Source: a virus (Duplodnaviria; Heunggongvirae; Uroviricota; Caudoviricetes). From it: a stretch of 64,000 bases of DNA. Positions 60,382-63,168 of this stretch are shown one piece after another; position 1 is the first letter of the stretch, and every line of letters begins with the position of its first letter. Below the pieces are notes generated by a model. The model did not search any database, was not told the origin of the DNA, and saw nothing but the letters and a program-made list of their open reading frames with translations. The stretch lies in IMG/VR virus record IMGVR_UViG_3300025765_000001. One strand, 5' to 3'. The position numbers were made by a program, and so were the translations under genes.

Positions 60382-63168
60382 ATGAACTATAAGGACACGC
60401 TACTCCTTCCGAAAACCGAATTCCCGATGCGACTATCTCTGGAAGACGAGCAAGCCGTCTACCGGGATTGGGAGTCGCTTTTCGCTTTGATGAAAGCCAT
60501 CAGGCGAGGACAATCCAGGTTCGTCTTCCATGACGGCCCGCCCTATGCGAACGGTCCTATTCACTTGGGCCACGCTCTCAACAAAGTTTTCAAGGACATC
60601 GTTTGCAAACGGCACTTCTTCGAGGGACTGGATGTAGATTTCCAGCCCGGTTGGGACTGCCACGGTCTACCCATCGAGATGAAAGTCCGTGACGGTGCCG
60701 GTGACGATCTGCACGACCGTTGCCGAGAATACGCCACAGAGCAAATCAAGCTCCAAATGGCCGGGTTCAAGGAGCTAGGCGTCGTTGCCGACTGGCACCA
60801 CTACTATCTCACGATGGACCCGGATTTTGAAGCCATGATCTTCCGTGGGTTGGTCCTGCTGGCGAAACAAGGCCTTCTATACGAGAAGAAGAAACCAGTT
60901 CGCTGGTCTTGGAAGGCAAGGACCGCTCTAGCCGAGGCCGAGATCGAGTACCGGGATCGGGAAGACCCGTCGATCTATGTCATGATTCCTTCGTTCACGC
61001 CGAATTACCATTTTTTGATTTGGACAACTACGCCCTGGACACTGCCCGGTAACCAAGCTGTAGCTCTGCACCCCGACGAGCCGTATGTCGGCGTCCGTGT
61101 CTATCCGGGTGAAAATAAAATTGCCATTGTTGGGGAGCGAAGATTGCCATTCCTCAAATCCATCGGTGTCGTTACCGACGAAGTTGTGACCCGATGGGAA
61201 CAGGGCAAGATTCTGTCTGGTGCCCCGCTGCATCATAAGTTCCTCGACCCCGCCGTTGAAGGTGGTGCGTATGTCATCATGAATCCCAATGCCGACCCGA
61301 ATATGGGAACCGGCTGCACGCATATCGCACCGGCCTACGGTGAAGAAGACTATATGTTGGGGCAGAAGAACAAACTAGAAGAATGGGTGAAAGTCTTCCA
61401 TCCACTCCCCATGCGGAATTACGTTGATGAAGAGGGTCGTATTGAGGAGCGGGTCAGTAATCGATGCTGTGCAGAACTAGCCAACAAAATCATCGGCCTT
61501 CATGTCTTTCAGGCTAATAAACCGATCTTCGAGTATCTGAAGGAGAAAGGCTGGATTCATCGTGACGGTAAAATCTACCCGGTGACACACAGTTACCCGC
61601 ATTGTTGGCGAACCGACACGCCGATCATTTTCCGTGCGGCCAAGCAGTGGTTCATCAATGTAGAAGTCATCATGCCCCAGGTACTAAAGACCCTGGAGCA
61701 AGTGGAGTTCGTACCGCCTAACCAGCGGAAGCGACTTGAGATCATGCTTCGTGGCCGCAGCGAGTGGTGTGTCAGCCGTCAGCGGAAATGGGGTGTACCT
61801 ATCGCCTTGTTTAAGCGACAAGGTACGTTGGTTCTAGATGACGATGTGACCAATAACGTAGCATCAATCATCGAGCAAGAAGGTTGCGGCGGTTGGTGGA
61901 GTCGCCCCAAAGAGTATTGGCTGCCGCCACATCTACGAGAACACGTCCGTCAGTTTGAAAGGGTGGAGGACACGCTAGACGTGTGGTTCGATAGCGGCAT
62001 GACCTGGAACGCCATCGGTTGGGAACACCCGCACGATCTCTATATCGAGGGTCACGATCAACACCGTGGTTGGTTTCAAAGCTCGCTGCTACTTGCCGTG
62101 GCCCTCACCGGCAAGGCTCCCTACAAGAAGGTTGTTACTCACGGTTTCGTACTGAATACTGATGGTGAGAAGATGGCGAAGTCCAAGGGGAACGCTGTCA
62201 GTCCAGCAATCCTAGTGAAACGCTATGGTGCCGAAGTCGTGCGTACCTGGGTTGCGTCGTCTGATTATCACAAGGATATGAATATCAGCGAAGTCATCAT
62301 GGCAAACGCTGCGGAGGACTACCGAAAACTCCGTAACACCTTCCGCTTCTTGCTGAGCAATCTAGATGATTCTAGCGTGGGTTTCGCTGGCCCGCTCATG
62401 CCAGTCGATGAATGGATTCTGTCTGTGCTTTCCAGAGTGTATGACGGTGTGGACGCCGATTTTGGAAAGTATGATTTTTATTCTGGCGTTGGAACGCTCA
62501 AAGAATTCCTACGTGGCGACCTCAACAGCATCTACTTCAATGCCATCAAGGATTCGCTATACTGCGACGACATCGCTTCGCCAACCAGAAGAAGTCATCA
62601 GTTTGCACTGGCGGTGATCCTGCGGTCCCTTCTGGGCCTCGCCGCCCCGGTTTGGACCTACACCGCCGCAGAAGTTTTCAAGTACGCACCGGGCTGGTTC
62701 AAGGGCGATAACCGCACGCTCTTCAACATGTCTTTTCAGGCCCCTGCCTTTACTAGTGGCTTCGACGGCCACTTCTGGAAGCGGGCTTTGACTGCGTTCC
62801 ATGAGAAGTGGGATCAACTCAAACGAGAGAAAGGTGTACGGGATACGCTGGAAGCCTGGATTTGTCTAAGTGGACGACTCGGTGAGCTAGGTGGACGACT
62901 CGGTGAGTTTCTAGGAATGGCTGACTGGTTCGTTGTCAGTCGTATCTCTAACTCTCTTTCCGATGGGACGGTGCTTGACAGTTTCAAAGTAGATGGAAAA
63001 GAGTTTTGGATCGTGCGTAGTCCGCTTGACAAATGCCCCAGATGTTGGAAATATACAAGGTTAGCAGAATCGAGGCTTTGCACACGTTGCCAAGGAGTCA
63101 TCCGTGAAGCTGACCGAGAAGCTGACCGAGAAGCACCGCCAACATCTGAAGCACCTTCTGTTCAATGA
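60382..63168 (+). CDS. ileS: isoleucyl-tRNA synthetase
   Basis: HIGH motif 'PYANGPIHLGHA', IleRS-specific 'WTTTPWTLPGNQA', KMSKS variant 'KMAKSKGN', C-terminal zinc finger 'CPRCWKYTRLAESRLCTRCQ'. 928 aa. Confidence 0.85.
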   Translation: MNYKDTLLLPKTEFPMRLSLEDEQAVYRDWESLFALMKAIRRGQSRFVFHDGPPYANGPIHLGHALNKVFKDIVCKRHFFEGLDVDFQPGWDCHGLPIEMKVRDGAGDDLHDRCREYATEQIKLQMAGFKELGVVADWHHYYLTMDPDFEAMIFRGLVLLAKQGLLYEKKKPVRWSWKARTALAEAEIEYRDREDPSIYVMIPSFTPNYHFLIWTTTPWTLPGNQAVALHPDEPYVGVRVYPGENKIAIVGERRLPFLKSIGVVTDEVVTRWEQGKILSGAPLHHKFLDPAVEGGAYVIMNPNADPNMGTGCTHIAPAYGEEDYMLGQKNKLEEWVKVFHPLPMRNYVDEEGRIEERVSNRCCAELANKIIGLHVFQANKPIFEYLKEKGWIHRDGKIYPVTHSYPHCWRTDTPIIFRAAKQWFINVEVIMPQVLKTLEQVEFVPPNQRKRLEIMLRGRSEWCVSRQRKWGVPIALFKRQGTLVLDDDVTNNVASIIEQEGCGGWWSRPKEYWLPPHLREHVRQFERVEDTLDVWFDSGMTWNAIGWEHPHDLYIEGHDQHRGWFQSSLLLAVALTGKAPYKKVVTHGFVLNTDGEKMAKSKGNAVSPAILVKRYGAEVVRTWVASSDYHKDMNISEVIMANAAEDYRKLRNTFRFLLSNLDDSSVGFAGPLMPVDEWILSVLSRVYDGVDADFGKYDFYSGVGTLKEFLRGDLNSIYFNAIKDSLYCDDIASPTRRSHQFALAVILRSLLGLAAPVWTYTAAEVFKYAPGWFKGDNRTLFNMSFQAPAFTSGFDGHFWKRALTAFHEKWDQLKREKGVRDTLEAWICLSGRLGELGGRLGEFLGMADWFVVSRISNSLSDGTVLDSFKVDGKEFWIVRSPLDKCPRCWKYTRLAESRLCTRCQGVIREADREADREAPPTSEAPSVQ

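Follow-up and report, generated by a model that had tools for sequence, protein, structure and literature searches.

Megavirus, Klosneuvirus and other giant viruses of eukaryotes encode isoleucyl-tRNA synthetases (IleRSs) as part of an expanded set of translation genes. These viral IleRSs are eukaryote-like and do not contain the bacterial zinc-binding domain. In the phage world, huge phages have been reported to carry up to 15 aminoacyl-tRNA synthetases (aaRSs) and 67 tRNAs, and the IleRS family TIGR00392 is listed for complete huge phage genomes in the supplementary tables of that study (Al-Shayeb et al., 2020, Nature 578:425, PMC7162821). Here, we discuss an IleRS gene located at positions 60382-63168 of a 64,000-nucleotide stretch of DNA (the window) from the virus record IMGVR_UViG_3300025765_000001. 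At least 35 IMG/VR contigs carry relatives of this IleRS in an alignment-based scan, and PHROGs already holds an IleRS family, phrog_12710, which the window protein matches at 3.4e-150. Because of these contigs, this family and the published tables, the presence of IleRS in huge phages is already known and is not a new finding.

In our reading, to which we assign a probability of about 0.8, a competent type-1 IleRS is carried within a translation island by a very large phage, whose contig measures at least 464 kb; the IleRS would belong to an old lineage, its repeats arose by replication slippage, and its gene overlaps the next one, ORF2. Of moderate interest beyond what is known are the history of these repeats, dual coding where IleRS overlaps ORF2, a phage-associated clade that is sister to Campylobacterota, and the discordant affinities of the IleRS and the DNA ligase of the same contig.

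The window corresponds to approximately positions 272,659-336,658 of contig k141_14709 (ENA ERZ27245623), which is 463,644 bp long. The region examined comprises about 81 kb, namely the window with 7.5 kb of upstream and 9.2 kb of downstream flank. The IleRS protein is also present on two shorter contigs (JGI 3300009594 and SRR5747427), and an exact-DNA scan of JGI metagenome contigs found nothing. A literature search for the accessions of the samples gave no paper that mentions them.

Identity and conservation of the synthetase

The gene and the signatures of its product are given below. Invariance refers to alignment A1, which comprises the window IleRS, the relatives nearest to it and four IleRSs from Campylobacterota.

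60382-63168, plus strand: coding sequence of isoleucyl-tRNA synthetase, type 1 (bacterial, with C-terminal zinc-binding domain), 928 aa, ATG to TGA
60562-60573, plus strand: HIGH signature, here HLGH, residues 61-64; H61, G63 and H64 invariant
61021-61053, plus strand: CP1 editing motif WTTTPWTLPGN, residues 214-224; W214-P222 and N224 invariant
62170-62184, plus strand: KMSKS signature, here KMAKS, residues 597-601; K597 and K600 invariant
63034-63090, plus strand: zinc-binding core C885-P-R-C888-W889 ... C900-T-R-C903; all four cysteines, R887 and W889 invariant

The product matches the Pfam families tRNA-synt_1 (8.9e-115) and Anticodon_1, and passes the NCBIfam ileS equivalog TIGR00392 with 722.9 bits against a cut-off of 621.4. 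Exact open reading frame (ORF), Pfam and TIGR00392 thus agree with the initial annotation, made from the sequence alone, of a full-length IleRS at this position. The models for ValRS, LeuRS and MetRS remain far under their own cut-offs, and those for MupA/MupB reach 250-266 bits against cut-offs of 1900. Among known structures, the top match is 8WNF (609 bits, residues 2-909 aligned), the IleRS of Helicobacter pylori (PMC11685878), followed by Priestia megaterium IleRS1 and Staphylococcus aureus IleRS. IleRS1 chains in the PDB score 541-609 bits, compared with approximately 264 bits for IleRS2 (type 2).

The variant signatures are found elsewhere in the family: HLGH is also present in H. pylori IleRS, and KMAKS is common to the window IleRS and its relatives P0002, P0005, P0006 and P0009. 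A second CP1 editing motif, GTGCTHIAPAYGEEDY, occupies residues 309-324, with H314 and D323 invariant. In the zinc-binding domain, R887 and W889 are the counterparts of S. aureus R888 and W890, which contact tRNA base 34 (PMC3575796, PMC11685878). On the basis of the structural match scores and these zinc-domain residues, the protein is assigned as a bacterial type-1 IleRS (the mupirocin-sensitive lineage), with a zinc-binding domain predicted to read tRNA base 34 and without type-2 C-terminal domains.

Selection on the gene was estimated against its 77%-identical relative (L046, protein P0002; JGI contig Ga0163150_10033027). The Nei-Gojobori dN/dS is 0.058 over 913 codons, with synonymous sites close to saturation in this comparison. 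By this measure, a decaying pseudogene is therefore ruled out, and the conserved motifs together with the low dN/dS predict a catalytically competent enzyme.

Lineage, host and nature of the contig

Close relatives of the window IleRS comprise only P0002 (77%) and the fragment P0003 (83%); the next most similar proteins, P0004-P0009, are 44-46% identical. Beyond these, all named matches are from Campylobacterota at 41-44% identity (Nitratifractor, Nitratiruptor, Sulfurimonas and Arcobacter), and a search of IMG/VR with the single IleRS protein found no close relative. The comparison with bacterial and phage homologues proposed in the initial annotation was made with a neighbour-joining tree of 211 sequences and 840 columns, built from the homologue matches, representatives at 50% identity and the IleRSs from 30 of 35 IMG/VR loci. 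The window IleRS (P0001) pairs with P0002 at 100% bootstrap support and groups with IleRSs on other contigs of about 240-674 kb in a 17-member clade (86%), which is sister to Campylobacterota (100% for the two together). All members of this clade come from metagenomic contigs, the size range being that of their longest versions. Two are IMG/VR genomes, L007 (UViG_3300049215_000771, 533 kb, identical to P0007) and L031 (UViG_3300020172_001601, 340 kb), and one sequence originates from the 0.1-0.22 µm fraction of Tara Oceans. The IleRSs P0004, P0007 and P0008 lie in syntenic islands with genes for Ro60, L12 and other aaRSs. Across the whole tree, IMG/VR IleRSs occupy 17 separate positions, and phage IleRSs are therefore polyphyletic as judged by their placement.

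The NAD-dependent DNA ligase of the contig disagrees with this affinity. Its 120 best matches are 53-61% identical, and every named one is from Planctomycetota/Pirellulaceae. Because of this ligase affinity and a window GC content of 50.1%, the host is likely to be a planctomycete, and on that reading the IleRS would represent an older phage-borne lineage and not a recent host capture. The MoxR extein encoded in the window has only matches of 32-42%, spread over many phyla, and the BatA-like VWA protein has no match in GTDB genomes. The type of IleRS that Planctomycetota themselves possess is not stated in the IleRS phylogeny literature examined.

It is quite unlikely that the IleRS was instead captured recently from the current host, in which case the phylogeny would name that host as a member of Campylobacterota. 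All named top matches are indeed Campylobacterota, and the best structure is that of H. pylori IleRS, but the identity to this phylum is only 41-46% and the sequence falls outside the phylum's clade, in the sister clade of large contigs. The ligase on the same contig, 54-61% identical to Planctomycetota/Pirellulaceae proteins, and the GC content of 50% also speak against such a capture.

The contig exceeds the 200-kb limit used for huge (jumbo) phages, and the window contains the following genes besides IleRS.

4-1602: NAD-dependent DNA ligase, 3' part; the full 738 aa are reached upstream (L042 6941-9157)
2446-4371: homologue of the Ro60/TROVE RNA-binding protein
17964-19088: serine recombinase (resolvase N-terminal domain; PHROG 'transposase'), within the tRNA array
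45071-47179: MoxR-type AAA_3 ATPase with an intein (Hint and LAGLIDADG homing endonuclease)
53916-54380: YqeY protein
58298-59017, minus strand: HNH endonuclease gene adjoining IleRS; 93.6% identical but inverted in the related contig L004

The MoxR ATPase gene heads a MoxR/VWA (Bat-like) cluster that runs to position 52423. The window also holds VWA proteins, an SPFH protein and HNH endonucleases, as well as the serine recombinase, which may be a mobile element or an agent of rearrangement in the tRNA array. The upstream flank encodes a sigma-70 factor, thioredoxin, an IF-1-like S1 protein and the complete ligase, and the downstream flank encodes a release-factor-like protein, methyltransferases and nucleotidyltransferases. 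Ro60-like genes are also found near IleRS in the huge-phage relatives L005, L044 and L045, but are too divergent to match the window Ro60 at E<1e-6. PHROG 'terminase large subunit' matches to the product of 45071-47179 were rejected as spurious, as they cover residues 63-419, which are the Hint/LAGLIDADG intein.

Ligase, YqeY and about 45 tRNAs had been named as the context of the gene; the first two are at the positions given above, and 44 tRNA genes were found. The phage-like context that had been proposed likewise holds, given the 463,644-bp contig, the tRNA array, ligase, YqeY, Ro60, IF-1, the sigma factor, the HNH genes and the intein. Pfam matches were obtained for 23 of the 59 complete called genes (39%, leaving 61% without), and none of these is to a ribosomal protein. 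Neither rRNA nor ribosomal protein genes occur in the approximately 81 kb, where Rfam identifies tRNAs only; nearby ribosomal genes, named beforehand as the sign of a cellular contig, are thus absent from the region. One ORFan matches only the uncultured phage LR756511.1 (595 kb), at 26% identity. We infer that the contig is a phage; this assignment is indirect, but well supported by gene content.

Could the contig instead be a fragment of a small cellular genome, from a reduced symbiont or an ultra-small bacterium, with IleRS as a housekeeping gene? The many translation genes (IleRS, IF-1, the release-factor-like gene, YqeY and about 44 tRNAs) would fit such an origin, as would the lack of a viral hallmark gene in the 81 kb read. 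However, the tRNAs are all on one strand and heavily duplicated (4 Val, 4 Pro, 4 Gly, 4 Glu, 3 Gln and 2 Ile-GAU), the release-factor-like protein, at 212 aa, resembles a fragment, and the 61% of genes without a Pfam match compares with roughly 27% collection-wide. HNH endonucleases, an intein and a serine recombinase among the tRNAs, the absence of rRNA and ribosomal proteins, and the two IMG/VR viral genomes among the nearest IleRS relatives are also at odds with it. Furthermore, ligase and IleRS point to different phyla, as would fit a mosaic mobile genome. A cellular origin is therefore very unlikely.

Several observations weigh against the phage reading or its details. No capsid, portal or terminase gene was found in the approximately 81 kb (PHROG scans of 30 proteins of the window and flanks), and the window DNA is unmatched in IMG/VR by exact-DNA scan. 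The tree is a neighbour-joining tree on Kimura distances with unlabelled representatives, and not a maximum likelihood tree. The loci of the clade relatives share almost nothing with the window beyond IleRS, and therefore only common descent of the gene, and not of the genomes, is supported. Finally, the 83%-identical IleRS in L004 ends at residue 588, before KMSKS; if this is real, the gene is dispensable there. In L004 (10001-13380; ENA ERZ4756919 NODE_1139, 57.9 kb), the cut IleRS abuts reverse-strand tRNA-Arg(UCU) and tRNA(UAU) genes as well as the inverted equivalent of window 54470-55790. The cut is either a real destructive rearrangement or a chimeric assembly.

The truncated copy in a related phage, together with HLGH in place of HIGH and KMAKS in place of KMSKS, could be taken to mean that the window protein is a degenerate or repurposed paralogue that has lost aminoacylation. 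This is highly improbable, as the active H. pylori enzyme has the identical HLGH, every invariant catalytic, editing and zinc-ligand residue is present, the NCBIfam equivalog cut-off is exceeded and dN/dS is 0.058.

Tandem repeats and the ORF2 overlap at the 3' end

The last 300 bp of the IleRS gene contain two tandem repeats and the start of a second gene. The features of this end of the gene are:

62866-62907, plus strand: 21-bp in-frame duplication, two copies, GRLGEL/GGRLGEF (Tandem Repeats Finder, TRF)
63092-63097, plus strand: AAGGAG resembling a Shine-Dalgarno (SD) sequence for ORF2, inside IleRS codons Q904-G905-V906 (read from sequence)
63100-63168, plus strand: IleRS C-terminal tail IREADREADREAPPTSEAPSVQ plus stop, in this sub-lineage only; the 22 residues that follow the zinc finger
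63102-63134, plus strand: 12-bp tandem repeat, 2.75 copies (TRF, 2.8 copies), peptide READREADRE
63104-63529, plus strand: ORF2, a conserved protein of 141 aa; GTG start, 65-nt overlap with IleRS in the +1 frame

The initial annotation had described a C-terminal tandem repeat encoding READREADRE, which is borne out, but as two copies of 14 bp, which is wrong: the TRF period is 12, with 2.75 copies. The 21-bp duplication, about 200 bp upstream of the 12-bp repeat, had been overlooked. It lies in the loop that separates the anticodon-binding from the zinc-binding domain (columns 921-934 of A1), whose length varies within the family. The 12-bp repeat falls in the C-terminal tail that is absent from other IleRSs, and adds READ to this tail and KLTE to the N-terminus of ORF2. 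Both repeats go beyond chance: the 64-kb window has only 7 TRF arrays scoring at least 50, 2 of them in these last 300 bp. Nor are they an assembly artefact, since three independent assemblies all give the identical protein of 928 aa.

At the two repeat sites, the window sequence reads SGRLGELGGRLGEF and READREADREAPP; the corresponding sequences are AGRPGEF and RETDRQAPP in P0002/L046, AGRPGEF and REANREAPP in L047, and CEANREAPP in L049. Thus, the 12-bp repeat is missing from three related lineages (L046, L047/L048 and L049) and the 21-bp duplication from two (P0002/L046 and L047). Both repeat units are in frame, corresponding to 4 and 7 codons, respectively. Since related lineages do not have them, both repeats are private to the window lineage, and the simplest reading is that they arose by recent in-frame replication slippage in segments that tolerate change, and are neutral. 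A functional C-terminal repeat, acting as a slippage switch, a site of IleRS-ORF2 frameshift fusion or a binding tail, is suggested by the clustering of 2 of the 7 window arrays in this short interval and by the position of the 12-bp repeat exactly in the IleRS/ORF2 overlap, but has a next to negligible chance of being right, given only about 2 to 2.75 copies in either repeat, periods in multiples of three that preserve both reading frames, absence from all related lineages examined with identity in three assemblies, the conserved SD and GTG that ORF2 has of its own, and an IleRS tail that is unconstrained in the IleRS frame.

The overlapping GTG- or ATG-initiated ORF that had been noted at the end of the gene corresponds to ORF2. 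On the source contigs, gene callers place the start of this gene at ATG 63179, so that its product has 116 aa and IleRS is not overlapped. By contrast, relatives that cover the start region (P0270, P0271 and P0272) are called at 136-137 aa, and their N-terminus, KLT[ED]KHRQHLKHLLFNDACSMYQ, is the most conserved part of the protein. The AAGGAG lies 6 nt before the GTG and just past the last zinc ligand of IleRS; both elements are kept in four lineages. The overlap measures 65 nt in the window, compared with 53 nt in lineages without the 12-bp duplication.

Substitutions in this stretch follow the ORF2 frame. Among the four lineages, 7 of 7 variable columns in 63104-63181, which are found between 63121 and 63178 and thus before ATG 63179, are at ORF2 codon position 3, which is IleRS position 1; six of them belong to the overlap, and such a pattern in these six has a probability of (1/3)^6 = 0.0014 by chance. 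The overlap stretch has pS 0.21 and pN 0.019 in the ORF2 frame (omega 0.08), whereas in the IleRS-frame tail pN (0.103) exceeds pS (0.067). Moreover, no other 60 nt in the 3.1-kb alignment with L046 are as well conserved as positions 63123-63182 (95%, against a mean of 72% and a standard deviation of 10%). On the conserved SD and GTG, the position-3 variation and the conservation of the overlap, we therefore regard ORF2 as a real gene with its true start at GTG 63104, and as the frame under selection in the overlap. The IleRS tail APPTSEAPSVQ exists because the next gene overlaps the IleRS end; its substitution pattern marks it as a passenger of this overlap, unconstrained in the IleRS frame.

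Among the 5.8 billion proteins of the database searched, only five belong to the ORF2 family. Neither Pfam nor PHROG gives a match for ORF2, and its AlphaFold model, based on 5 sequences, has a pLDDT of 50 and is too poor for use. Two further features flank the pair of genes.

60041-60382, plus strand: small upstream ORF, start uncertain, whose TGA shares one base with the IleRS ATG
63638-63667, plus strand: terminator-like hairpin, a 13-bp stem followed by a T run, 110 nt past ORF2; weak, such sites occurring at about shuffle expectation

The small ORF likewise has no Pfam or PHROG match, and the promoter and terminator scan gave counts at chance level. Approximately 100 bp past the end of the window (L001 13721-14359), the 212-aa release-factor-like protein contains only the C-terminal part of PCRF and the RF-1 (GGQ) domain. 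It is kept downstream of IleRS-ORF2 in a relative (L047 3592-4230) at 87% identity.

tRNA complement and comparison with known systems

All 44 tRNA genes found in the window by ARAGORN are on the plus strand, and Rfam likewise gives 44 tRNA matches. Those of direct relevance to IleRS are:

15586-15738, plus strand: two adjacent tRNA-Ile(GAU) genes (ARAGORN, Rfam); A73, C4:G69, loop CUGAUAA
55798-55887, plus strand: 90-nt tRNA, anticodon UAU, extra variable arm of 23 nt; 4.5 kb upstream of IleRS

The two tRNA-Ile(GAU) are likely to be the cognate substrates of the IleRS. The tRNA(UAU) has a class II shape, yet carries A73, C4:G69, C29:G41 and the loop CUUAUAA. Folding gives a cloverleaf that bears one more hairpin (z = -3.3), and a conserved copy is present in the 83%-related phage contig L004 (11834-11924, minus strand). 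This tRNA is a possible decoder of AUA, a rare codon (6.9 per 1000 codons) that the IleRS gene does not use.

Other tRNAs in the window also have unusual structures. The 95-nt tRNA at 56171-56265 has an insertion of about 21-24 nt in the anticodon loop, which forms its own hairpin and may be a short intron. ARAGORN assigns it a four-base anticodon, 'taac', and the loop becomes CUUAUAA if ACGTCTTATCAGACGACAAAC is removed. Over-long tRNAs include Asn (86 nt, 15344-15429), Lys(UUU) (83 nt, 15500-15582) and Phe with the unusual anticodon AAA (81 nt, 44913-44993), and enlargement of the variable region seems to characterise the tRNAs of this genome. A 71-nt tRNA with a UCA anticodon (40782-40852, called tRNA-SeC) resembles an opal suppressor. 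Recoding of stop codons in the window was considered and rejected, as TGA is the commonest stop (10 of the 18 genes called with confidence end in it) and table 11 gives a clean IleRS ORF. A 78-bp, two-copy TRF array at 37070-37228 represents adjacent tRNA-Glu genes (UUC and CUC), a duplication within the tRNA array. The JGI 3300009594 assembly breaks between two unusual tRNAs, with Ga0114941_100001 ending at about 56,089 and Ga0114941_100154 starting at about 55,967; this may reflect population variation or a repeat.

During infection, the phage IleRS would charge tRNA-Ile with isoleucine, its predicted substrates being the phage's two tRNA-Ile(GAU) and probably the host tRNA-Ile; the tRNA(UAU) of the phage may be a further one. 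The supply of Ile-tRNA could in this way be kept independent of the host enzyme. Together with IleRS, about 44 tRNAs, YqeY, IF-1 and the release-factor-like gene would make up a translation island, and the IleRS lineage, found on other very large metagenomic and viral contigs and sister to Campylobacterota, is presumably old. A more far-reaching proposal would be partly host-independent decoding of isoleucine, combining an old, phage-borne type-1 IleRS that is foreign to the probable planctomycete host, the two tRNA-Ile(GAU) and the conserved tRNA(UAU) of unusual shape, which would read AUA without host TilS, with the translationally coupled, cysteine-rich ORF2 as a phage-specific partner of the synthetase; we consider this unlikely.

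These findings leave the current understanding of phage biology unchanged. They extend the catalogue of huge-phage translation genes by one IleRS that is well characterised and maintained by selection, and point to an IleRS lineage common to several contigs of about 240-674 kb rather than to recent capture from a host. They also illustrate that aaRS phylogeny alone can mislead host prediction, as IleRS indicates Campylobacterota and the ligase Planctomycetota. Finally, the downstream gene, mis-started by gene callers in three assemblies, provides a clean, small example of dual coding, with the IleRS tail as the passenger frame.

Compared with cellular IleRS1 enzymes of known structure (H. pylori 8WNF and S. 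aureus 1FFY), the window IleRS has the same order of a HUP fold with HIGH and KMSKS, CP1, a helical anticodon-binding domain and a treble-clef zinc domain, and is alike in the R-C-W contact to tRNA base 34. It differs from them by small private insertions, the 22-residue tail past the zinc finger and its phage-like contig, and its identity with cellular IleRSs is no higher than 41-46%. As a bacterial type-1 enzyme, it is unlike the IleRSs of giant viruses.

A further parallel is found in Mycoplasma mobile, where an IleRS1 is also paired in the genome with a UAU-anticodon tRNA. The M. mobile enzyme has Arg at the position of the Trp stacked on base 34 (Taniguchi et al., 2013, PMC3575796). An equivalent adaptation of the window IleRS to tRNA(UAU) was considered and rejected: the Trp to Arg/Lys change at the E. 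coli W905 position is absent, W889 being conserved, and a preference for an unmodified UAU anticodon is therefore not predicted.

A close likeness is seen to the huge phages (PMC7162821), which share with this contig a size above 200 kb, tens of tRNAs, aaRSs, and genes for initiation and release factors. The differences lie in the IleRS itself, which is at most 46% identical to any known huge-phage or IMG/VR IleRS; in its being the only aaRS in 64 kb, whereas several aaRSs are clustered in the relatives P0004, P0007 and P0008; and in an affinity to Campylobacterota that disagrees with the affinity of the ligase to Planctomycetota.

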